Origin: Parcubacteria group bacterium LiPW_41
GTDB taxonomy: Bacteria; Patescibacteriota; Minisyncoccia; UBA6257; GWB1-50-10
Length of the DNA stretch: 64,000 bases
Assembly (NCBI GenBank): GCA_007375535.1
Contig: VMEM01000003.1
Location: 32,811-96,810, forward strand
Direction: 5' to 3'
Part shown: positions 24,624 to 59,889 of the stretch, in pieces
Layout: each line of letters begins with the position of its first letter
Position numbering within the stretch: the first letter of the stretch is position 1
Position numbers and translations under genes: made by a program
The notes under the pieces: model-generated
The model's input: the letters and a program-made list of their open reading frames with translations, nothing else
What the model was told of the DNA's origin: nothing
The model's database searches: none

Positions 24624-25844
24624 ATGGATTTTTTTACTATCACTACACGTGATAAAAAAACAAAAGCAAGAGTTGGAATGTTAAAGACTTCACATGGTGG
24701 CGTAGCTGAGACTCCGTCATATGTTGTTGTTGGAACTCGTGCAAAGGTTAAAACGTTAACCACAGAAGATATAAAGAAATCAAAAACGCAGATGATAATT
24801 TCAAATACATATCATCTGTTTCGTGAGCTTGGAGATTCAGTGAAAGAATTTGAAGGGTTGCATAGCCGATTAGGATTTGATGGAGTTGTTATGACAGATT
24901 CCGGTGGTTTTCAGGTGTTCTCACTTGGGTTTTCAAGGGAGCACAATGTTTCGAAAGTTGGTTTTTTTTCTCACAAAAAAAATAGTTTTGTCGCGGATCT
25001 CATTTTGGCATTGCGTGCGAAAATTGGTTTGAGAAACAAAAGGAATTCAGTACGTATAACAAACAACGGGGCTTGGTTCAAAGATGAATCATATAGTGAT
25101 AAAAAACCAATTTTTCTTACTCCAGAAAAATCAATTGAAATACAAGAGTCTCTTGGTGCTGATATTATTCTTGCATTCGATGAATGCACATCTCCAAAAC
25201 ACGGATTTTGGTATAACAAGTGGGCAATGATTCGTACTCACCGATGGGCGCTTCGATGTATAAAAGCAAAAAAGAAAAATTCACAGGCATTATATGGAAT
25301 AGTTCAAGGTGGAGACTATGAAGAATTACGAAAAGAAAGCGCTCGTGTAATTGGTAAGATGCCTTTTGATGGATTTGCTATTGGTGGTTCTTTTGGGAAA
25401 GAAGAAATGAGAAATGTTATTGATTGGAGTGTTCCATTTTTACCAGAGGAAAAACCAAGACACCTTTTAGGAGTTGGACGAATCGAAGATATTCTTGATG
25501 GTGTTGAGAGGGGCATTGATACATTTGATTGTGTTATCCCAACACGAGAAGGGCGACATGGGGGAATTTGGACCAAGAAGGGGAGGTATGACGTAACAAA
25601 AACAAAATTTTTAGGAAATAATGAATTATTAGAAAACGGGTGTATGTGTCCCGCGTGTAGTTCTGGGATTACAAAAGGAGTGTTGTGTAATCTTTTTAAA
25701 GAAAAAAATGAAGAAGCGGGGCGATATGCGACGCTGCACAATGTATTTTTTTTCAATTCGTTTATGGAGCATCTTCGTACATCAATAAAAAATGGAACAT
25801 TTTCCGAATTTAAAAAACAGGTTTTACTAGATTTGCATTTATAA
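24624..25844 (+). CDS. tgt: Queuine/preQ1 tRNA-guanine transglycosylase
   Basis: 406 aa. TIM-barrel TGT motifs (VMTDSGGFQV, AFDEC) and zinc site CMCPACSS...H. Confidence 0.9.
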   Translation: MDFFTITTRDKKTKARVGMLKTSHGGVAETPSYVVVGTRAKVKTLTTEDIKKSKTQMIISNTYHLFRELGDSVKEFEGLHSRLGFDGVVMTDSGGFQVFSLGFSREHNVSKVGFFSHKKNSFVADLILALRAKIGLRNKRNSVRITNNGAWFKDESYSDKKPIFLTPEKSIEIQESLGADIILAFDECTSPKHGFWYNKWAMIRTHRWALRCIKAKKKNSQALYGIVQGGDYEELRKESARVIGKMPFDGFAIGGSFGKEEMRNVIDWSVPFLPEEKPRHLLGVGRIEDILDGVERGIDTFDCVIPTREGRHGGIWTKKGRYDVTKTKFLGNNELLENGCMCPACSSGITKGVLCNLFKEKNEEAGRYATLHNVFFFNSFMEHLRTSIKNGTFSEFKKQVLLDLHL

Positions 25845-25847
25845 TGA

Positions 25848-25956
25848 ATCCCGTTAGAAAACGGAACATTCATAAATAGTCTACTAATATGTATGTATGC
25901 AAAAACAAATAACAAAAATGTCGAATAACCAAAATTGTCAGGTCTTCTAACGGGAT
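25848..25956. repeat. IR-bounded intergenic element, copy A (ATCCCGTTAGAA ... TTCTAACGGGAT). Its last two bases are the AT of the queA start codon.
   Basis: Perfect 12-bp terminal inverted repeats, 109 bp overall. Begins 3 nt after the tgt stop. No SD-like sequence upstream of the queA ATG. Confidence 0.7.
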
Positions 25957-26974
25957 GAATCAGTATTTTTATGAATTGCCACGTGAGCTAATTGCACAAA
26001 AACCGGCAGAACCAAGAGATTCTTCACGTTTATTTGTGTACGATACAAAAACGGATGAAATTTTTTTTGATGTATTTCGAAATTGTGGAGAATATATTCC
26101 TTCGGGGAGTACATTAATTCTTAATAAGACAAAGGTTGTTCCTGCCCGTGTCTACATGGAAAAGGAAACTGGTGGAAAGATTGAGGTGTTATTTTTAATA
26201 AATGAATATGGAGGTGGAAAAGAGTTCTTGGTGATTGTGGATAGGAAATTAATAATTGGGCAGAAGTTATTTTTTCCCAATAGAAAAGCATTTGAAGTTA
26301 TTGATCAGAAGGATCAGTTTTTTACATTGAAATGTCTTTTTGATGAAAGTGAGATTTTTTCATTATTGGAAATATTCGGGACCACACCAATACCGAAATA
26401 TATACATGAACACAATCTTTCCGAATCGGTAATTAAAGATCGCTATCAAAGTATTTTCGCTGAAACGCCTGCTTCAATTGCGGCGCCAACGGCCTCATTA
26501 CATTTCACTAACGAAGTATTTGAATCGTTAAAAAAGAAGGACGTTATAACAGCGGAAATTCTCTTACATGTTGGTATGGGAACTTTTGCTCCAGTGAGTG
26601 ATGTTCAGATTCAGAGCGGAATGTTGCATAAGGAGTGGTATTCGATTCCAAAAGAGACTGAAGAAGTGATAAAGCTTTGCTCACAAAAATCCATCATTCC
26701 TGTTGGGACCACTGCAATGCGTGCATTGGAGTCGTTTGCAAAAACAGAAAAAAATGAAGGTATAACCAACTTATTTATAAAAAGGCCATTTCAATTCAGA
26801 GTTGCTTCTGGTCTTATCACTAATTTTCACGTTCCAGAGTCATCACTTATGTTTCTTGTTGATGCATTTCTAGAGTATAAGCATTCAAAACGAACAATTC
26901 TTGATTTATATAAAATTGCAATAAAGGAGAAGTTCCGTTTTTATTCATTTGGGGATGCGATGTACATAAAGTAG
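25955..26974 (+). CDS. queA: S-adenosylmethionine:tRNA ribosyltransferase-isomerase
   Basis: 339 aa. N-terminus YELPRELIAQKPAEPRDSSRL matches the QueA consensus. Confidence 0.9.
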   Translation: MNQYFYELPRELIAQKPAEPRDSSRLFVYDTKTDEIFFDVFRNCGEYIPSGSTLILNKTKVVPARVYMEKETGGKIEVLFLINEYGGGKEFLVIVDRKLIIGQKLFFPNRKAFEVIDQKDQFFTLKCLFDESEIFSLLEIFGTTPIPKYIHEHNLSESVIKDRYQSIFAETPASIAAPTASLHFTNEVFESLKKKDVITAEILLHVGMGTFAPVSDVQIQSGMLHKEWYSIPKETEEVIKLCSQKSIIPVGTTAMRALESFAKTEKNEGITNLFIKRPFQFRVASGLITNFHVPESSLMFLVDAFLEYKHSKRTILDLYKIAIKEKFRFYSFGDAMYIK

Positions 26975-31331: not shown

Positions 31332-32720
31332 ATGTTGAATGAGGTTTCAGGACATTTTGGAGATACGTTAACAGAACTTTTAGGAAAGGCTGAAATTTGG
31401 ATATTTCTTGTTCTTGTTGGGGTTTCTATTGCCGTTCCTTTTATTGCTCCACAAGAAGTAGTAAATATTTTTATTCGTTTCCTTGAGCTTACGTGGCCAA
31501 TTTGGTTATTCTTTTTTCTTTTTGAGATAGCAAAACCGCTTTATCTATTTATCAAACAGGAACAGTTTAAAGAAAAAGAGATGGCGGGAGAAAAAAATGC
31601 TCTTCTCGAACTCAGAATCCCACGAGCTCTTGAGAAGGGTCCACAGGCAATGGAGCAGATTCTTTTAGCAATACATGGAATGACTGGATCTCCAGGTGAT
31701 TGGAATAAAATCTGGCTTGATGGAGAAACGATGCTTTGGTTTTCACTTGAAATGGTGAGTATCGGGGGAGAGGTACATTTTTATGTACGAATTCCTAAAA
31801 GAAGTAAGAATCTTGTTGAAGCGGTCATTTTATCAAGTTATTCAGATATTGAAGTCGTTGAGGTTCCAGATTATATTTCGATAATTCCAGAAACAACTGC
31901 TGATTTATATGCTGAAGAAAAAGATATTTGGGGGACTGAAATAAAACTTGCGAAGGATTCAATGTATCCAATTAGAACATATGCATCTTTTGGTACTTCA
32001 GAAGAAAATGCAACTGCACTTGATCCGGCATCATCGTTTCTTGAAATACTCGGCAAATTAAAGACGGGAGAATTTGCTGGGGTCCAAATTGTTATTCAAC
32101 CTGCAGCGAAAGACTGGGGAAAACAATGGGCTGAGGCGTTAGATAAATTAAGGACGCCAAAAGTTGTTGGAACAACTCAACTTACTGATCCAAAAGAAAC
32201 AACCGCAACGATTGATGCAGTTGCACGAAATCTTGCAAAGTCTGCGTTTAAAACGTTAATTCGGGTTATGTATGTTGGTCCAACTACAGTGTTTAAAGAT
32301 GGTTCTGGATTTGTGCGTGGTGGAATTACTGGTGCATTCAATCAATATAGCTCTCCAACATTGAATGCATTTAAAGCAAATGGAGCTGTTGGTACTAGTG
32401 TTGATAAGTGGAAGAAGCCATATATTTTAAATGATGTAAGACTTGAAATGAAAAAACAGAGAATGTTGTGGAATTATCGAAAAAGAAAACTTGCGCCACA
32501 GTCATTTGTTGAAAAGTTTTTCACGTCATTTTCAACAAATGGAAATAATTCTGAGAGTTTTGAGCTCGCACTTGATGGGGTAGCAACAATCTTCCATTTG
32601 CCAACTTCTGTTGTTCTCACCACTCCACACATGCGAAGAGTTGAAAGTAAGAAATCTGGTCCTCCTGTTGGACTTGCAATATTTGGTGAAGAGTCGCAAT
32701 TGGAAAAATTTGGAGGGTGA
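31332..32720 (+). CDS. Module gene 1: membrane protein with two N-terminal TM helices and a large soluble domain (uncharacterised)
   Basis: 462 aa. TM helices around residues 20-70. No recognisable catalytic motif. First gene of a tightly packed, partly overlapping five-gene set. Confidence 0.5.
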   Translation: MLNEVSGHFGDTLTELLGKAEIWIFLVLVGVSIAVPFIAPQEVVNIFIRFLELTWPIWLFFFLFEIAKPLYLFIKQEQFKEKEMAGEKNALLELRIPRALEKGPQAMEQILLAIHGMTGSPGDWNKIWLDGETMLWFSLEMVSIGGEVHFYVRIPKRSKNLVEAVILSSYSDIEVVEVPDYISIIPETTADLYAEEKDIWGTEIKLAKDSMYPIRTYASFGTSEENATALDPASSFLEILGKLKTGEFAGVQIVIQPAAKDWGKQWAEALDKLRTPKVVGTTQLTDPKETTATIDAVARNLAKSAFKTLIRVMYVGPTTVFKDGSGFVRGGITGAFNQYSSPTLNAFKANGAVGTSVDKWKKPYILNDVRLEMKKQRMLWNYRKRKLAPQSFVEKFFTSFSTNGNNSESFELALDGVATIFHLPTSVVLTTPHMRRVESKKSGPPVGLAIFGEESQLEKFGG

Positions 32721-44997: not shown

Positions 44998-45549
44998 ATG
45001 CATCAAAGTTTAATTGAATTTAAAGAAACGGCAAAAAAAATTGTTGAAGATTTCAAAAAAGAAATTTCTGGAGTACGAGCAAATCGTCCTTCGGCAGCCT
45101 TGATTGAAGAAATAAAAGTTATTTATTACGGCAATCCAACACCATTGAAACATGTTGGTACTATTTCCGTGTTACCACCCCGTGAGCTTCAGGTTCAATT
45201 TTGGGATAAGGAAGCGGTTGCACCTTCAGCGAAAGCAATTGAATCATCTGCTTTGGGGCTTACTCCAAATATCGAAGGAAATACTATTCGTATTTTTCTT
45301 CCCGAACTTTCAAGTGAACGAAGGGATGAGTTAGCAAAATATGCAAAAAAAATATCTGAAGAATACAGAATTTCACTTCGTCATTCGCGCGATGAGGCAA
45401 ACAAAGGTGCTCAGGCGGCATTTGATGAAAAAGAGATTGGAGAGGATATGAAATTTAAATTAAAAGAAGAGATTCAGAAACAAACTGAAGAAACAAACAA
45501 ATTAATTGAGGAGGTATTGGATAAGAAGATTGCAGAAATTCACGAATAA
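44998..45549 (+). CDS. frr: Ribosome recycling factor
   Basis: 183 aa. IRANRPSAALIEEIKVIYYGNPTPLKHVGTISV and a C-terminal charged helix. Confidence 0.9.
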   Translation: MHQSLIEFKETAKKIVEDFKKEISGVRANRPSAALIEEIKVIYYGNPTPLKHVGTISVLPPRELQVQFWDKEAVAPSAKAIESSALGLTPNIEGNTIRIFLPELSSERRDELAKYAKKISEEYRISLRHSRDEANKGAQAAFDEKEIGEDMKFKLKEEIQKQTEETNKLIEEVLDKKIAEIHE

Positions 45550-45554
45550 TTTCA

Positions 45555-46595
45555 ATGATTACTTTTATTGTTATTGTAGGAATTATATTTCTCATTCTTG
45601 CGCATGAATGTGGACATTTTTTTGTGGCGCGAAAGTTTAAGGTAACCGTTGAAGAGTTTGGTATTGGATATCCTCCTCGTATATGGAGCAAAACAAAGGA
45701 TGGGGTGGTATGGAGTATTAACGCGCTTCCTTTTGGTGGGTTTGTGAAGATTCTTGGAGAAGATGGAGGAAATAATGATCCAAACTCATTTTCAAAACAA
45801 AAAATTTGGAAAAGAATTTCTATTTTGTCTGCAGGGGTTCTTATGAACATCCTTGTCGGTTGGATTTTTTTCTCTGGGGTGTATATGACTGGGAGTCCTG
45901 AGCGCGCCATTGTAATGGACGTAAAACAAAATACTCCCGCGGCGATTGCGGGAATAGAAAAGGGGGACATAGTACTTGCACTTGAGTCTTCTGATGTAGG
46001 AATAGTAAAAAAACCAAACGCAGATGAATTTATTTCATTTACTGGAAAAGCGGTAGGTAAGGAGATGGTAATTGAAGTATCTCGACAGGGTAACAATAAA
46101 ATGTTTACCGTCATACCAAGAATAAATCCACCAGAAGGAGAGGGGGCATTAGGTGTTTCGATAACAAATGCAGGGTTCCCACGACAGTCATTTTTTTCTT
46201 CAATTCTAAGTGGATTTACAACAACTATTAGTGTTATTGGTGCGATTGTTGTGGGTTTGTTTAGTTTTTTTGCTCACATCTTTTCTCCTAATGGATTTGA
46301 TGCTGTTGCGGGTCCAATTGGGGTTGTGAAGATGGCATCAGAGATGGGAACATTGGGACTTTCTTATGTATTTCAAATTATTGGACTTATTTCCATTAAT
46401 CTTGCGATTCTTAATTTAATTCCATTTCCTGCACTTGATGGGGGGCGAATACTTTTCCTTATTATTGAAAAATTTAGGGGGAAGCCAGCACCAGAAAAAA
46501 TTGAGCAATGGGTAAATATGGCGGGATTTTTTATACTTATTGCACTTATGATCGCGGTTACATTTAAAGATTTGTCGCGGTTGTTTTCGGCCTAG
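45555..46595 (+). CDS. rseP: RseP-like site-2 zinc metalloprotease (M50) with a PDZ domain
   Basis: HExxH motif ILAHECGHFFVARKF, PDZ region, and C-terminal LDGGR motif. Confidence 0.85.
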   Translation: MITFIVIVGIIFLILAHECGHFFVARKFKVTVEEFGIGYPPRIWSKTKDGVVWSINALPFGGFVKILGEDGGNNDPNSFSKQKIWKRISILSAGVLMNILVGWIFFSGVYMTGSPERAIVMDVKQNTPAAIAGIEKGDIVLALESSDVGIVKKPNADEFISFTGKAVGKEMVIEVSRQGNNKMFTVIPRINPPEGEGALGVSITNAGFPRQSFFSSILSGFTTTISVIGAIVVGLFSFFAHIFSPNGFDAVAGPIGVVKMASEMGTLGLSYVFQIIGLISINLAILNLIPFPALDGGRILFLIIEKFRGKPAPEKIEQWVNMAGFFILIALMIAVTFKDLSRLFSA

Positions 46596-46623
46596 TTTAG
46601 ATATCTATTTGAAAAAAAGGCAT

Positions 46624-46658
46624 AAACCGTTCTATACTGTGATATAGAGCGGTTTTTA
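46624..46658 (+). terminator. Intrinsic terminator after rseP
   Basis: 12-bp stem aaccgttctata / tatagagcggtt (one G-U pair) followed by ttttt. Confidence 0.6.
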
Positions 46659-46665
46659 TATATTT

Positions 46666-46790
46666 ATCCCGTTAGAAACCGCGATCGCTTTGAGGGATAG
46701 GAAAATAATAAAACTATGAACCTTAGTCGAAACAATAAATTTATTCAACATGTCGCATCATTTTCGATTGCGATCTGTTTCTAACGGGAT
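46666..46790. repeat. IR-bounded intergenic element, copy B (ATCCCGTTAGAAAC ... GTTTCTAACGGGAT). Its last two bases are the AT of the proS start codon.
   Basis: Perfect 14-bp terminal inverted repeats, 125 bp overall. Same terminal sequence as copies A and C. Confidence 0.7.
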
Positions 46791-48489
46791 GCGACAATCT
46801 CACTATTTTTTGAAGACAAGCAAGACATTTTCCGAGGAGGATTCGATCATTTCAGCTCGTCTTTTAAAACAGGCAGGCTTTATTCAGGAGTCAGTGGCTG
46901 GCCGATATTATTTTTTACCAATTGGATATAAGGTCCAACAGAATATTATGAAGGTGGTAAAAGAGGAAATGGATAGGGTGGGGGCACAGGAAATGATTGC
47001 TCCAATTTTGCATCCACTTGAATTATGGAAAGAAACAAATAGGACTAACACTACTGGGTTTGAATTAATGAAGGTGAAAGATCGCCGTGGATCAGAGTTC
47101 GCCTTAGGAGGAACAGCCGAGGAAATGTTTGTTGATTTGGTTCGAAAATATGAATTGAGTTATAAAAATCTTCCATTTCATTTATATCAATTTTCTCCAA
47201 AATTTCGGGATGAGATTCGTGCGCGCGGAGGATTACTTCGAGTGCGTGAATTTATCATGAAAGATGGATATTCATTTCATAGAAATGAGGATGATTTTAA
47301 AACAACATATGAGGAGATGAAGAATGTGTATTCAAAGATATTTGAGAGAATGGGGCTCAAAACTGTCATTGTTGAAGCAGATAATGGATACATTGGTGGT
47401 GAATATTGTCATGAATTTATTGTTGAAGCCGAGAACGGAGAAAGTAGATTTTTTGTGTCGGAAGACGGGATATATGCCGCACACGAAGACATTGCAAAAT
47501 TTAAGCGCGATCCGGCAAATGCTAACGAAAAAGAATTGCCGTTTGAAATTATCTCACAACCTGAATGGGTGCAAACGATGGATGATAATGTAAAACATTA
47601 TCAAAAAGACAAAAAACATTTTCTAAAGAATGTAGTGTATAAAAATAGTACAACTGGGGAACTTATTATTGCTGTAGTGACAGGGGACTTAGAGGTGAAT
47701 CAGACAAAACTCGAACATGTACTAAAGATGGTTGGACAGCTTTCTCCTGCGGAAGATGCTGATTTAGAGAAGTTAGGAACGAAACACGGATATGTCCACT
47801 CATGGGGGCATAACGCGCGGTACATCGGAGATATTGTTCTTGCTGAAGCCAAAAATCTCATTGGAGGATTAAAGGAAGATACAACCGACTCAATTAATGT
47901 AAATCATGGGAGAGACTTCACTTGTGAGTTTCTTGCGGATATTGCATCAGCGAAGCCAGGCGATAAGTCAGAGGGTGGAAGTGTATTAGTAGAGAAGCGA
48001 GGAATAGAGGTAGGAAACACTTTCCAGCTTGGGTATCATTACACCACCCTTATGAAGGGGGCGACCTATAAAGATGAGGATGGTACTGAGAAGCCATTTT
48101 ATATGGGATGTTATGGAATAGGTATTGGTCGCACCATGGCAACATTGGTTGAGCAGTTTCATGATGCAAGGGGAATACAATGGCCAGAAGTAATTGCTCC
48201 ATTTAAGGTTCATCTGATTGCATTGCTTACAAAAGACGAAGATTTGAAAAAGGAGGCAGAATTACTCTATACTAGGCTTGTTGCATTAGGGGTAGAGGTA
48301 TTATTTGATGATCGAGAAGGAGTTTCTGCTGGTGAAAAACTTGCCGATGCAGACCTTGTTGGAATCCCTTATCGAGTGCTTATAAGTGAGAAAACAAGAA
48401 AAGAGGGAAAATTGGAATTGAAAAAGAGAATAGAAACTGTCGCACAATTATTGAGTGAGGATGAAATAATAAAAATTGTTACAAAATGA
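46789..48489 (+). CDS. proS: Prolyl-tRNA synthetase
   Basis: Class II aaRS motifs and a ProRS anticodon-binding domain. Start placed at ATG 46789 (MRQSHYFLKTSKTF...), which aligns with ProS N-termini. The tracked ORF start at 46750 lies inside the repeat element. Confidence 0.85.
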   Translation: MRQSHYFLKTSKTFSEEDSIISARLLKQAGFIQESVAGRYYFLPIGYKVQQNIMKVVKEEMDRVGAQEMIAPILHPLELWKETNRTNTTGFELMKVKDRRGSEFALGGTAEEMFVDLVRKYELSYKNLPFHLYQFSPKFRDEIRARGGLLRVREFIMKDGYSFHRNEDDFKTTYEEMKNVYSKIFERMGLKTVIVEADNGYIGGEYCHEFIVEAENGESRFFVSEDGIYAAHEDIAKFKRDPANANEKELPFEIISQPEWVQTMDDNVKHYQKDKKHFLKNVVYKNSTTGELIIAVVTGDLEVNQTKLEHVLKMVGQLSPAEDADLEKLGTKHGYVHSWGHNARYIGDIVLAEAKNLIGGLKEDTTDSINVNHGRDFTCEFLADIASAKPGDKSEGGSVLVEKRGIEVGNTFQLGYHYTTLMKGATYKDEDGTEKPFYMGCYGIGIGRTMATLVEQFHDARGIQWPEVIAPFKVHLIALLTKDEDLKKEAELLYTRLVALGVEVLFDDREGVSAGEKLADADLVGIPYRVLISEKTRKEGKLELKKRIETVAQLLSEDEIIKIVTK

Positions 48490-49511: not shown

Positions 49512-49543
49512 TCGAAATAATAAAATAGGGTTTTTCTAATAAG

Positions 49544-50239
49544 ATGAAAACAACTCGCATATTAGTTCAGGTGTTATTACTCATTTCTCTTATAGTTGCA
49601 CTCCTTATGTTTCGTAGTGAAATAGGTGATTTTATTGTTGGACTTCGTTCCGTTGTGTTTGGTGTGCTTGGTCCCTCATGCGAAGTACAAAAAATGAAAG
49701 ACGTTCAAGCAGAGAATGTATCACTCAAAAAACAAATTGAATTACTTTCACTTAAGATGGGAATAAAGGAGAATAGTGGAGAGCTTGTAGCAAATGTTTA
49801 TTCATCTTATCCATTTAATGACAAAGTTCATATTGTGGTTGATAAGGGGAGTAATGATGGAGTTAACGTTGGAATGCCGGTAATGGTACAAAAAAACATT
49901 GTTATCGGGAAAGTCATTTCAGTTAAAAAAACGCAAAGTGAGATTCAAACTATTTTTGATCCAGAATGGAAAACAAGTGTAGTGATTGGTACCTCGACAG
50001 TAAAGGCGGTTTTGAAAGGGGGAAATACTCCTGAGGTTCAATTTATTCCTAAAGATGCACACATTGTCTCTGGTGAGGAAGTATTAAATATCGCACAGGA
50101 ATTTCCAATTCATACTATACTTGGATCAATTAAATCGGTTCGGGAGGATGAGAAGAAGTTATGGCAGGTCGCGAGTATTGAATTGCCAGTTTCTTTTGAT
50201 GCACTTCGTACGGTAACTATACTTACGACATTTCCATAA
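49544..50239 (+). CDS. mreC: Rod shape-determining protein MreC
   Basis: N-terminal TM and coiled coil, then MreC beta-barrel motifs (VVIGTSTVKAVLKG, IVSGEEVLNIAQEFP). Confidence 0.75.
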   Translation: MKTTRILVQVLLLISLIVALLMFRSEIGDFIVGLRSVVFGVLGPSCEVQKMKDVQAENVSLKKQIELLSLKMGIKENSGELVANVYSSYPFNDKVHIVVDKGSNDGVNVGMPVMVQKNIVIGKVISVKKTQSEIQTIFDPEWKTSVVIGTSTVKAVLKGGNTPEVQFIPKDAHIVSGEEVLNIAQEFPIHTILGSIKSVREDEKKLWQVASIELPVSFDALRTVTILTTFP

Positions 50240-52581: not shown

Positions 52582-52602
52582 ACCCTTGGGTTTTCTAAAA
52601 TT

Positions 52603-53073
52603 ATGTCAACAAAGAAAAACTACCTCACAAAAGAGCGATACGAAGAGATTGTTACTGAGCTTGAGTCATTGAGGCTTGAAGGACGTCGTACGGTTGCAGA
52701 GCGTTTAAAACACGCAAAGGAACTTGGTGATTTATCGGAAAATTCAGAATATCAAGAAGCTCGCGACGAGCAGGCACGTCTTGAGGGAAAAATTGCAGAA
52801 CTAGAAGATCTTCTTCGAAATTCGGCTATTATTGAAAAAACTGGAAATGGAACGGGTGGAGTTCGCGTTGGTTCAAAAGTGACAGTAAAGAAGGGAAGTG
52901 AAAAAAGAGTTTTCACAATCGTTGGTTCAAATGAATCAAAACCAACCGAAGGGTTGATTTCAAATGAATCACCAATTGGACAGGCACTTATTGGAAAAAA
53001 AGATGGAGACAAAGTAACCGTTGTTACCCCAACAGGTCTTACTGTTGATTACACAATACTTTCTATTGAGTAA
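52603..53073 (+). CDS. greA: Transcription elongation factor GreA
   Basis: N-terminal coiled coil with a DLSENSEYQEARDEQ acidic tip and a C-terminal FKBP-like domain. Confidence 0.9.
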   Translation: MSTKKNYLTKERYEEIVTELESLRLEGRRTVAERLKHAKELGDLSENSEYQEARDEQARLEGKIAELEDLLRNSAIIEKTGNGTGGVRVGSKVTVKKGSEKRVFTIVGSNESKPTEGLISNESPIGQALIGKKDGDKVTVVTPTGLTVDYTILSIE

Positions 53074-58889: not shown

Positions 58890-59078
58890 TCCCGTTAGAG
58901 ACGGTTTGTGAATGCATAACAAGTATTCTCACTATTATCTTTACCTGACACATAAGGAATAACAACAACGGAAATGGTTATTTATAACACTTACAATTAT
59001 ATCAATACACTGGTCGCACATACTACAGAAAATGGCTGTGACTCTACTCACATAACCATTTCCTGTCTCTAACGGGAT
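58890..59078. repeat. IR-bounded intergenic element, copy C (TCCCGTTAGAGAC ... GTCTCTAACGGGA[T]). Ends at the start codon of the pilin gene.
   Basis: 13-bp terminal inverted repeats, about 189 bp overall. Carries a compensatory change relative to copies A and B (GAAAC/GTTTC becomes GAGAC/GTCTC). Internal 10-bp hairpin ggaaatggtt / aaccatttcc. Confidence 0.7.
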
Positions 59079-59889
59079 GAAGAATCTATTAAAAGATAAT
59101 AATTCTGGATTTACCCTTATTGAGCTTCTTATTTATGCAGCAATTTTCTCAGTAAGTGCTGTTTTTTTGGTGAACATTCTAACTTCAATCACACAGACAC
59201 AAATTAAGCAGACTTCTGCAAATGAAGTTGGTCAGCAGGTTTCTTTTGTCAGTAATACAATTCAGCGATTAGTTCGAGAGGGAAGTGTTATTGAAAACGA
59301 TTCTGGAGTTGCAAGTTCAACGATCAAAATCAGAACAACGGCGTCTTCAACTGATCCAACACTTATTTATTGGGATCAAACGAATAACACTATTCAATTA
59401 AGACAAGGATCAAGTTCGCCAATACAACTTACCAATGAGAAGGTTGTGGTAAGTGCATTTTCTGCGACAAAATACGAAAATCCTGGAGGAAATGCAGTTG
59501 TACAAGTGGATTTTGCGCTTGCGGTTAACACAACGGTGGAGAGAGCTAAGGTTACGAAATTTTGGAGGGGTGCAATAACAAGAATTTCTGCCGCAACATT
59601 TGATTCTGATTTACTTCCAAATACTTCAAACGCATTAAATCTTGGTGGCGCAGGATCAACATGGAAAGATGGTTTTTTTAATGGCGCAGTGAATATAATT
59701 GGAAAGCTAGGAGTAAGTACACAGCCATCTGATATCTCTGGTATGGCTTCGGGGATAAAAGTAAATGGAGATGTCTCATTTATGGCTTCAGCAAACGGAG
59801 TAATATTAAAAGCGCCAAATGGAACTTGTTATAGGGTTACTGTGATAAATGGGGGAACGCTTGCCACGGCAACTGCGACGTGCCCGTAG
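59077..59889 (+). CDS. Type IV pilin-like protein (long, 270 aa) with a class III signal peptide
   Basis: MKNLLKDNNSG followed by FTLIELLIYAAIFSVSAVFLV: a prepilin leader, cleavage-site Gly, then Phe+1 and Glu+5. Confidence 0.7.
   Translation: MKNLLKDNNSGFTLIELLIYAAIFSVSAVFLVNILTSITQTQIKQTSANEVGQQVSFVSNTIQRLVREGSVIENDSGVASSTIKIRTTASSTDPTLIYWDQTNNTIQLRQGSSSPIQLTNEKVVVSAFSATKYENPGGNAVVQVDFALAVNTTVERAKVTKFWRGAITRISAATFDSDLLPNTSNALNLGGAGSTWKDGFFNGAVNIIGKLGVSTQPSDISGMASGIKVNGDVSFMASANGVILKAPNGTCYRVTVINGGTLATATATCP

Follow-up and report, generated by a model that had tools for sequence, protein, structure and literature searches.

What kind of element can end exactly at the start codon of a gene, and do so three times within one stretch of DNA? 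The stretch analyzed here (64,000 nucleotides (nt) of Parcubacteria group bacterium LiPW_41, contig VMEM01000003.1, positions 32,811 to 96,810; hereafter the window) contains three intergenic units, copies A, B and C, which share a terminal inverted repeat and abut queA, proS and a type IV pilin gene, respectively. We report that the three units are probably copies of a family of non-autonomous DNA transposons, i.e., transposable elements of the miniature inverted-repeat type (MITEs), that nests in start codons and whose insertions would be tolerated via translational coupling and unmasking of a stem.

The window contains exactly three occurrences of the right repeat TCTAACGGGATG (at 25946, 46780 and 59068), and the inverse CCCGTTAGA lies 87–168 nt upstream of each occurrence. 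The copies are bounded by TCCCGTTAGA...TCTAACGGGA, and the right repeat supplies, with its final A, the first base of the ATG of queA (25955), proS (46789) and the pilin gene (59077). In 100 shuffles the two-arm pattern gave 0.00 matches, when compared with 2 two-arm units per strand in the real sequence. The preliminary description of this DNA, which had placed three inverted-repeat units at these ATGs, is thus borne out by coordinates and sequence, with none expected by chance. The interiors of the three copies are mutually unrelated, and the outer T and A enclose 107, 123 and 188 nt, respectively. The core repeats of copy A (25849–25858 and 25946–25955) form a stem that extends to 13 positions with one A·C mismatch. 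The stem is fully paired (13 of 13) in copy B (46667–46679 with 46777–46789; 14 of 14 if the flanking A and T are counted) and in copy C (58890–58902 with 59065–59077).

Copy A is flanked on both sides by the direct repeat TGAA (25845–25848 and 25956–25959), which had been overlooked earlier. Read on the + strand, it is made up of the left target-site duplication TGAA (25845..25848), the left terminal inverted repeat (25849..25861; TCCCGTTAGA plus three covarying positions), a variable, A/T-rich interior without a promoter-like site (25862..25942), the right terminal inverted repeat (25943..25955), whose last base, 25955, begins the rebuilt queA ATG (25955–25957), and the right target-site duplication TGAA (25956..25959), which is also bases 2–5 of queA. 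QueA homologues begin at the ATG at 25955–25957. The ancestral queA start is still present as an 11-codon upstream open reading frame (ORF), ATG AAT CCC GTT AGA ... TAG (25844..25879, +), that crosses the left repeat; the old ATG (25844–25846) overlaps the tgt stop TAA (25842–25844). The relative L002, whose QueA is 84% identical, has no spacer between the two genes: its tgt stop and queA ATG overlap, and the empty site reads ...TTTAGGATGAATCAA. The alignment with this relative places the ancestral ...ATGAAT at both the left and the right junction of copy A, so that TGAA is a duplication flanking TCCCG...CGGGA.

Empty sites were also found for the other two copies: at proS in L128 (93% ProS identity), L126 (91%) and L130 (77%), and at the pilin gene in L126 (TATACTaaatatatagagaATGaag; TATACT-N13-ATGAAG). 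Gain and loss are visible at further genes. L126 has elements before rseP and before mreC that are ∼90% alike in their interiors. The rseP elements (L126 8755–8864 and L128 1133–1225), with the degenerate termini CTCGTTAGAA...TTCTAACAAG and an ATGATT duplication, lie between frr and rseP, and the frr/rseP junction of the window (45549–45557) has neither a spacer nor an element. At mreC, the full ∼100-nt element of L126 (12737–12838) is matched in the window by a right-arm remnant only, the degenerate right repeat TCTAATAAG-A (49535..49544, +), a fourth copy in origin, which abuts the mreC ATG (through 49546). A solo right arm precedes queA in a more distant relative (L004/L005). It would be a natural reading of such sequences that deletions can strip all but the bases that now carry the start codon. 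A comparable TTCTAAAATT-ATG precedes greA (window ∼52590–52605).

The preliminary description had also considered a functional RNA, and had named as a refutation that relatives keep the gene starts without any paired structure before them. Relatives whose orthologous spacers lack the element do keep the same gene starts, and therefore the element is not a gene-specific regulator.

To define the family, species-representative genomes (one genome per species) were scanned with TCCCGTTAGA-N71-131-TCTAACGGGA, and JGI metagenomes were scanned for the 151–211-nt class. The search pattern fixed the 10-bp termini and contained no ATG, and the unit statistics below rest on the matches listed from the genome and metagenome scans. 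At least 120 stretches were found in the species-representative genomes and at least 120 in the JGI metagenomes. Viral contigs gave 1 stretch in 2.9 million, and carriage by phages was rejected on this single match. The record titles of the listed matches are overwhelmingly Patescibacteria (Saccharibacteria, many Parcubacteria/Paceibacterota lineages, and Levyi-, Kerfeld-, Doudna- and Kazan-type groups); Omnitrophota, Planctomycetota, Desulfobacterales or WOR-3 stands in the titles of some long contigs, a range given by record label alone. One copy (L124) lies in the 694-kb genome RAAC4_OD1_1, and L110, L119 and L230 carry recently active copies. The units measure 74–211 bp, with modes at ∼117–122 and ∼185–195 nt, and copy C falls in the second class.

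The typical junction is A-TGRR/TCCCGTTAGA...TCTAACGGGA/TGRR. GGGA followed by TG opens an ORF of at least 60 codons in 121 of the 148 listed units, and a 4-bp direct repeat flanks 101 of them. The left flank of gene-oriented units reads A (85%), T (82%) and G (76%), followed by R and R; in the metagenome set it reads A (77%), T (78%), G (63%), with TGAA 36 times, TGGA 7 times and TGAG 3 times as the duplication. Across the family the duplications are TGAA, TGGA, TGAG, TGCA, TGCG and similar, and variants that end in G, with a C-G outer pair, rebuild GTG instead of ATG. At sites away from ORF starts the duplications are TAAA, CATA, TTGA, CTGA, CTTA and others, and ∼1/3 of these sites are still of the ATGRR type; the sequence preference is therefore real, but not absolute.

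Movement of the units, and the anatomy of their junctions, can be read directly from these comparisons. In four pairs, elements that are 88–100% identical occupy different genes, and every one has a separate duplication; TGAA and TGAG flank elements that are 95% identical to each other; and tandem and nested insertions into the same TGAA occur. The interiors are unrelated across the family, the peptides of the upstream frame share only the repeat-encoded MxPVR, and the units have no conserved coding capacity, as expected of a MITE. The host proteins (n = 121) fall into 151 different Pfam families, among them T2SS F, L17, topoisomerase, tRNA synthetases, SecDF and glycosyltransferases, and the hosts include essential genes such as proS. 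Among the roles first proposed, a MITE-like mobile element inserting close to start codons is thus the one sustained by target-site duplications, empty sites and identical elements at different genes.

Two stretches from Elusimicrobia-labelled records (L065 4658–4764 and L115 5271–5412) have the same 10-bp termini and G+C-rich, mutually similar interiors (GGCGCACCGGA...). They show no junction ATG and no duplication, and may represent a different element or a chance match.

Copy B (+) starts with the left terminal inverted repeat TCCCGTTAGAAAC (46667..46679), after which CGCGATCGC forms the 5′ side of a second helix. Its interior (46680..46776) holds an in-frame ATG at 46750, and its right terminal inverted repeat GTTTCTAACGGGA (46777..46789) supplies at 46789 the A of the proS ATG. 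Its left flank, ATTTA, resembles an ATGCG that has decayed, and no duplication can be recognised there. The NCBI model of proS (579 amino acids) starts at the ATG at 46750, inside copy B and 13 codons early; ProS homologues (91–93% identity) have 566 amino acids, and the alignment begins at the ATG at 46789. A promoter-like site, TTGAAA-18-TATACT, overlaps a terminator-like hairpin upstream of copy B (46609..46655, +) and is kept in relatives without the element; this site (46609–46638) is probably the source of the copy B transcript. The hairpin and T-run follow rseP (window 46624–46655), and the 5′ arm holds the −10 box TATACT, with TTGAAA 18 nt upstream; a terminator and a promoter thus appear to coincide before proS in the window, L126, L128 and L130.

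Copy C (+) has a left flank ...TATACT N17 ending in CGTG, again with no recognisable duplication. It consists of the left terminal inverted repeat TCCCGTTAGAGAC (58890..58902), an interior of the ∼190-nt size class (58903..59064), in which a second helix of 12 bp (58970–58981 with 59052–59063) abuts the closing stem, and the right terminal inverted repeat GTCTCTAACGGGA (59065..59077), where 59077 is the A of the pilin ATG. No promoter-like site was found inside copies A, B or C, and this leaves the earlier proposal of transcripts that start within the element unsupported.

In each window copy a 9–10-nt interior segment is perfectly complementary to the first 10–25 nt of the host ORF (25868–25876 with 25968–25976, 46751–46759 with 46788–46796, and 58933–58942 with 59092–59101). 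The interior was considered as an anti-start or guide segment complementary to the host 5′ coding region, and this was rejected as a family-wide property: a match of at least 8 nt was found in 13% of the 121 units vs. 8% of mismatched pairs. The complementarity in the window copies may be due to chance or may be lineage-specific.

Pairing of the ends was then analyzed across the family alignment. Stem positions 11–13 are paired in 99.1% of the cells. Double-change cells at these positions number 125 vs. 42 ± 4.6 after shuffling, and none of 500 shuffles reached 125. A-U, G-C, U-A, C-G and G-U pairs are all present, and slid controls collapse. Position 14 is a conserved C·U mismatch or a 1-nt bulge. 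On the 3′ strand, the nucleotides immediately 5′ of this position form the 3′ half of a second helix. This half has a perfect 7-bp partner in 43 units out of 121 in one set and in 48 out of 88 in the other, whereas shuffled controls gave 14 and 5, respectively; the helix sequences are diverse (31 and 21 different ones in the two sets). The partner may be local (GGAAATC-TAAA-GATTTCC), beside the left repeat (copy B: CGCGATCGC with GCGATC) or distant (copy C).

Statistically, these counts indicate that pairing is under selection. The selection for stem pairing claimed in the preliminary description is in this way upheld, and the covariation and the second helix extend it to the whole family. The compensatory double change of copy C (GAGAC/GTCTC) is real and is one case of the family-wide covariation at positions 11–13, whereas the "outermost G-U-compatible pair" of copy C lies outside the element, in flank or target sequence. 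The term "rod-like" holds for the basal ∼21 bp (the 13-bp closing stem and the stacked helix of at least 7 bp) and not for the apical parts, which are variable. A G·U bias in imperfect repeats would tell RNA-level from DNA-level pairing; clean cases are few, with three C-to-T examples giving a sense-strand G·U, and they hint that pairing may be selected at the RNA level. Every copy that was folded shows the closing stem in its minimum-energy structure (z-scores between −3 and −6). The C-to-T changes occur in L012 3853–3950 (−), L018 7173–7240 (−) and L025 1130–1235 (−), whose right repeats read TTTAATGGG or TCTAATGGG; in these few cases G·U is kept in the sense RNA, with A·C on the other strand.

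The old ATG is kept in ∼80% of the gene-associated units. The frame that it opens stays open through the interior in 33 of 89 units, vs. 8–15 in the other five frames and 8.5 ± 2.7 (maximum 17) expected from shuffled sequences. It ends at the TAA of the right repeat, 4 nt before the rebuilt ATG, in 23 cases, or in an ATGA overlap in 9 cases. Lengths that are multiples of three are in excess among the elements (55:39:27). No fusion with the host protein was found: none of the 19 units of the in-frame length class has an open frame. Statistically, the upstream frame is under selection. In a subfamily of ∼105 nt, TCCCGTTAGA-ACTCT...TTTGGAGT-TCTAACGGGA, a GGAG resembling a Shine-Dalgarno (SD) sequence lies 10 nt before the rebuilt ATG and is paired in the closing stem. 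The record labels of its members L014, L029, L037, L071, L077, L093 and L107 (∼102–133 nt) are Omnitrophota, Planctomycetota and Saccharibacteria. In 7 of 8 units the upstream frame is fully open.

These features can be joined into one course of events, in which the junctions are observed and the expression of the gene is proposed. The element inserts by preference after the first base of the start codon, presumably by DDE-type transposition chemistry, and usually duplicates TGRR, so that its terminal A (sometimes G) rebuilds the ATG flush with the right end. The host ORF stays whole because the element's terminal A and the duplicated TG re-create the ATG. The old ATG stays upstream with its native initiation context (leaderless-like, SD-led or coupled to an upstream stop) and opens a short ORF (M-N/S/D-P-V-R...) across the left repeat. 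In the transcript the ends would pair into the 13-bp stem with the stacked second helix, placing the rebuilt AUG at the foot of the helix, and ribosomes starting at the old AUG would melt the stem and expose it. In many copies translation could continue as far as the UAA that the right repeat (UCUAACGGGAUG) holds 4 nt ahead of the AUG, or as far as the AUGA overlap, and then re-initiate. The signals of the original start would in this manner still govern host expression. Copies B and C are examples of older copies, in which the upstream ATG would have decayed and the element would act as a plain 5′ untranslated region (UTR).

Several observations weigh against a start-codon MITE tolerated in this way. 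First, 56 of the 89 upstream ORFs stop early, including the 11-codon ORF of copy A, so that full read-through coupling is not a general mechanism; in early-stopping copies only the stem-melting part could apply, and in copies without an upstream ATG (B and C) neither part would. Second, the duplication has 3 bp in a minority, its length not being strictly fixed, and ∼20% of the family, as well as copies B and C, have none. The left flanks of units without a duplication are often ATAAA, ATAGA, ATTAG or ATTTA, 1–3 changes from ATGRR that destroy the old ATG, and copies B (ATTTA) and C (ACGTG) belong here; copy B would require either three substitutions from ATGCG or an insertion free of duplication. 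Third, the apparent invariance of the 10-bp termini is in part ascertainment by the search pattern, and variant termini (CCCCG... and ...TAATGGG) were also seen. Fourth, no transposase or autonomous partner was found in 1.7 Mb of flanks. Pairs of terminal repeats 300–4000 bp apart with matching duplications all enclose further repeats, i.e., they are neighbouring MITEs. When ORFs of at least 180–200 amino acids from 1.0 and then 1.7 Mb of flanks were clustered, only housekeeping families recurred, with no recombinase or integrase.

The last two points concern where and in which direction the units stand. Of the ATGRR sites in the window, 630 are intragenic, 43 are intergenic and 33 are starts. 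A preference for ATGRR, together with purging of intragenic insertions, predicts ∼43% of the copies at starts; the observed fraction is ∼82% overall and ∼91% among units with an intact ATG-type duplication (85 of 93; P = 2e-22), so that something beyond preference and purging is acting. Part of this excess may be retention, since imprecise deletion is impossible at a start, and the remnants fit this; part may be ascertainment, perfect 10-bp termini having been required; and part may be real targeting. We infer that the start-codon bias results from target preference and selection. Targeting of leaderless genes or transcription starts was tried as a cause and rejected: 28% of the hosts are leaderless-like and 12% SD-like, when compared with 21% and 15% of 803 control genes, which is no difference. 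As to direction, the YCT-RNY side adjoins the gene in 66 of 72 classifiable units of the genome set (66:6) and in 58 of 59 units of the metagenome set (58:1). A transposase that acts on identical inverted repeats would not be expected to give such a bias in orientation, which calls for strand-specific insertion or strong selection. Both explanations remain. Insertion may be strand-specific; since the + strand carries 58 of the 62 window genes, a replication-strand bias would look like a gene-strand bias. Alternatively, the reverse orientation may be selected against.

The start bias and the polarity could also mean that the insertion machinery reads strand or initiation-site information (replication forks, melted promoter or start regions) and belongs to a kind that is not yet recognised as a transposase. 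The element would then be a portable translational-coupling cassette, with its stem, its built-in UAA and, in one subfamily, its sequestered GGAG, recruited repeatedly by Patescibacteria and neighbouring phyla to tune arbitrary genes. We regard this as possible but unlikely.

How the rebuilt AUG is freed might also be explained at the RNA level. The element would again be a mobile insertion, and its ∼21-bp helix would be cut by a double-strand RNase (e.g., RNase III), leaving a near-leaderless mRNA that starts at or just before the rebuilt AUG. Intervening sequences of rRNA and Correia elements are known to be cut in this way. The quasi-continuous helix of about two turns, with its fixed 1-nt bulge or C·U mismatch at position 14, would suit such cleavage. 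Many hosts look leaderless, −10-like hexamers peaking 6–7 nt before the old ATG, and the genome is SD-poor; moreover, copies without an upstream ATG (B and C) need another route to a free AUG. RNA removal, however, leaves unexplained the open upstream-ATG frame with its end at the TAA of the repeat, and the retention of the old ATG in so many gene-associated units. We consider it improbable as a replacement for coupling, although cleavage is a live option as an alternative or as a complement.

The preliminary description had contrasted the three host genes, as lacking SD sequences, with most other genes, said to have AGGAG-like sites. This contrast was not confirmed: an SD-like sequence is present within 22 nt upstream in only 15 of the 62 window genes, and the three hosts are unremarkable in such a genome. 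Several window genes (e.g., at 31332, 19153, 23112 and 12494) have −10 boxes of the TACAAT, TAGAAT or TATACT type 6–8 nt before the ATG. The sequence suggests that leaderless mRNAs are frequent in this genome.

A vertically inherited cis-regulatory RNA in the 5′ UTR (a riboswitch, thermosensor or protein-binding leader) that occludes the AUG would account for the stem covariation, the second conserved helix, the AUG at the stem foot and the low folding z-scores. It is very unlikely, and largely refuted by the close relatives in which the orthologous spacers lack the element while the starts are the same. Target-site duplications, identical copies at different genes and unrelated interiors also speak against it, and the many unrelated Pfam families among the hosts form no coherent gene set. 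A search of the elements against Rfam 15 gave no match at the gathering score or at E ≤ 1.

In an inverton the shared inverted repeats would be sites at which a master invertase flips a promoter or UTR segment before phase-variable genes. The 100–190-bp segments lie directly upstream of genes, and one host is a pilin gene. Yet there is no promoter-like site within the segments to be flipped, and the polarity is nearly fixed (see above). Direct repeats flank the units, hosts include the essential proS, topoisomerase and ribosomal proteins, and the flanks contain no recurrent recombinase. The units have an unchanged orientation on the organism's second contig, the comparison being limited to two, identical, contigs. 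We hold an inverton to be highly improbable. Integron attC-like recombination sites bounding gene cassettes can be dismissed almost outright: the units do resemble attC as imperfect 60–140-bp palindromes with GTTAGA/TCTAAC, recalling its core sites (RYYYAAC...GTTRRRY), but the order of the cores is reversed, with GTTAGA 5′ and TCTAAC 3′ on both strands, which refutes this origin, and the units adjoin housekeeping genes at the 5′ end, with the synteny conserved and no integrase recurring in the flanks.

Two further candidates were rejected. Self-cleaving ribozymes (hammerhead, twister, pistol, hatchet and HDV-like) gave no Rfam match at E ≤ 1, and the closing helix is fully paired with only YCU-R conserved. 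Elements derived from IS200/IS605 have no terminal inverted repeats and no target duplication; they carry subterminal hairpins and use a fixed tetra- or pentanucleotide target on one side. The present units have terminal repeats and variable duplications, and only their strict polarity is like that of a palindrome-associated element of this type.

Turning back to the start-codon MITE, its parts can be compared with known systems. Translational coupling by termination and re-initiation, or by unmasking of a structure, is classical in operons. As there, the upstream frame ends 4 nt before the AUG or overlaps it (UAAcgggAUG, AUGA), and the AUG (in one subfamily also GGAG) is locked in a helix; unlike there, the module is brought by a mobile element, and the upstream frame is made by duplicating the gene's own start. 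Transposons of the piggyBac/IS1380 type presumably resemble the element in their 4-bp duplication and CCC...TAGAAA termini (piggyBac TTAA/CCCTAGAAAG...), which we take as a lead only; the target is TGRR and not TTAA, and no transposase of any family was found in the flanks. The retrotransposon Ty3 is tethered by transcription factors at Pol III start sites. Insertion of the present element is likewise concentrated within a few bases of the functional start of a gene, but the common denominator is the ATGRR start-codon sequence rather than the transcription start, and leaderless-type promoters are not enriched among the hosts.

Among bacterial repeats, the Correia elements of Neisseria (CREE/NEMIS) are small, non-coding and co-transcribed, and their repeat hairpin is cut by RNase III (PMC10969869). 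The present family is like Correia, ERIC, BOX and RUP elements in its size of ∼100–200 bp, terminal inverted repeats, target duplication, position beside genes and presence/absence polymorphism (PMC10969869). Correia elements, however, have a TA duplication, 26-bp repeats, promoters and a site for integration host factor (IHF), and occur in one genus at variable distances from genes. The family described here has a 4-bp TGRR duplication taken from the start codon, 13-bp repeats and no internal promoter; its last base completes the ATG, its orientation is near-fixed, and its termini are found across many Patescibacteria phyla and beyond. Rickettsia palindromic elements (RPEs) are also palindromic mobile units compatible with expression of an essential host ORF (PMC10969869). 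They lie in-frame inside ORFs and are translated with the protein, whereas the present element stays outside the host ORF as an upstream ORF or UTR.

No description of such an element was found in the literature, mostly in freely accessible papers, so that an earlier description is possible. The phrase "start codon" is absent from the text of a review of prokaryotic MITEs (PMC10969869), and both "start codon" and "Patescibacteria" are absent from a survey of MITEs in Nucleic Acids Research (NAR). We have apparently found a small mobile DNA that is widespread in the ultra-small Patescibacteria (candidate phyla radiation, CPR) and previously undescribed. It looks like a bacterial MITE in kind, with start-codon nesting and rebuilding, near-fixed polarity, a built-in stop for the upstream frame and a superphylum-wide range as its new features.

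Genomes with ∼90% coding sequence offer transposons few harmless sites, and landing in a start codon and rebuilding it appears to solve that problem. With gain, loss and remnants visible between close relatives, the family provides an abundant and easily spotted marker of recent strain-level change in uncultured Patescibacteria. Gene callers that expect an SD sequence, or that extend to the first ATG, will mis-start element-bearing genes, as in the case of proS. Because the rebuilt AUG lacks an SD sequence and is placed at the base of a 13-bp helix, the element is, in addition, a natural probe of initiation in SD-poor, leaderless-rich bacteria.

The proS locus differs among relatives in a second respect. 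Between rseP and proS, where the window and L126 have no such insertion, the relative with 93% identical ProS carries a cassette resembling a diversity-generating retroelement, with an RVT_1 reverse transcriptase and a bAvd-family protein (L128 3868–5279 and L129 311–1362).

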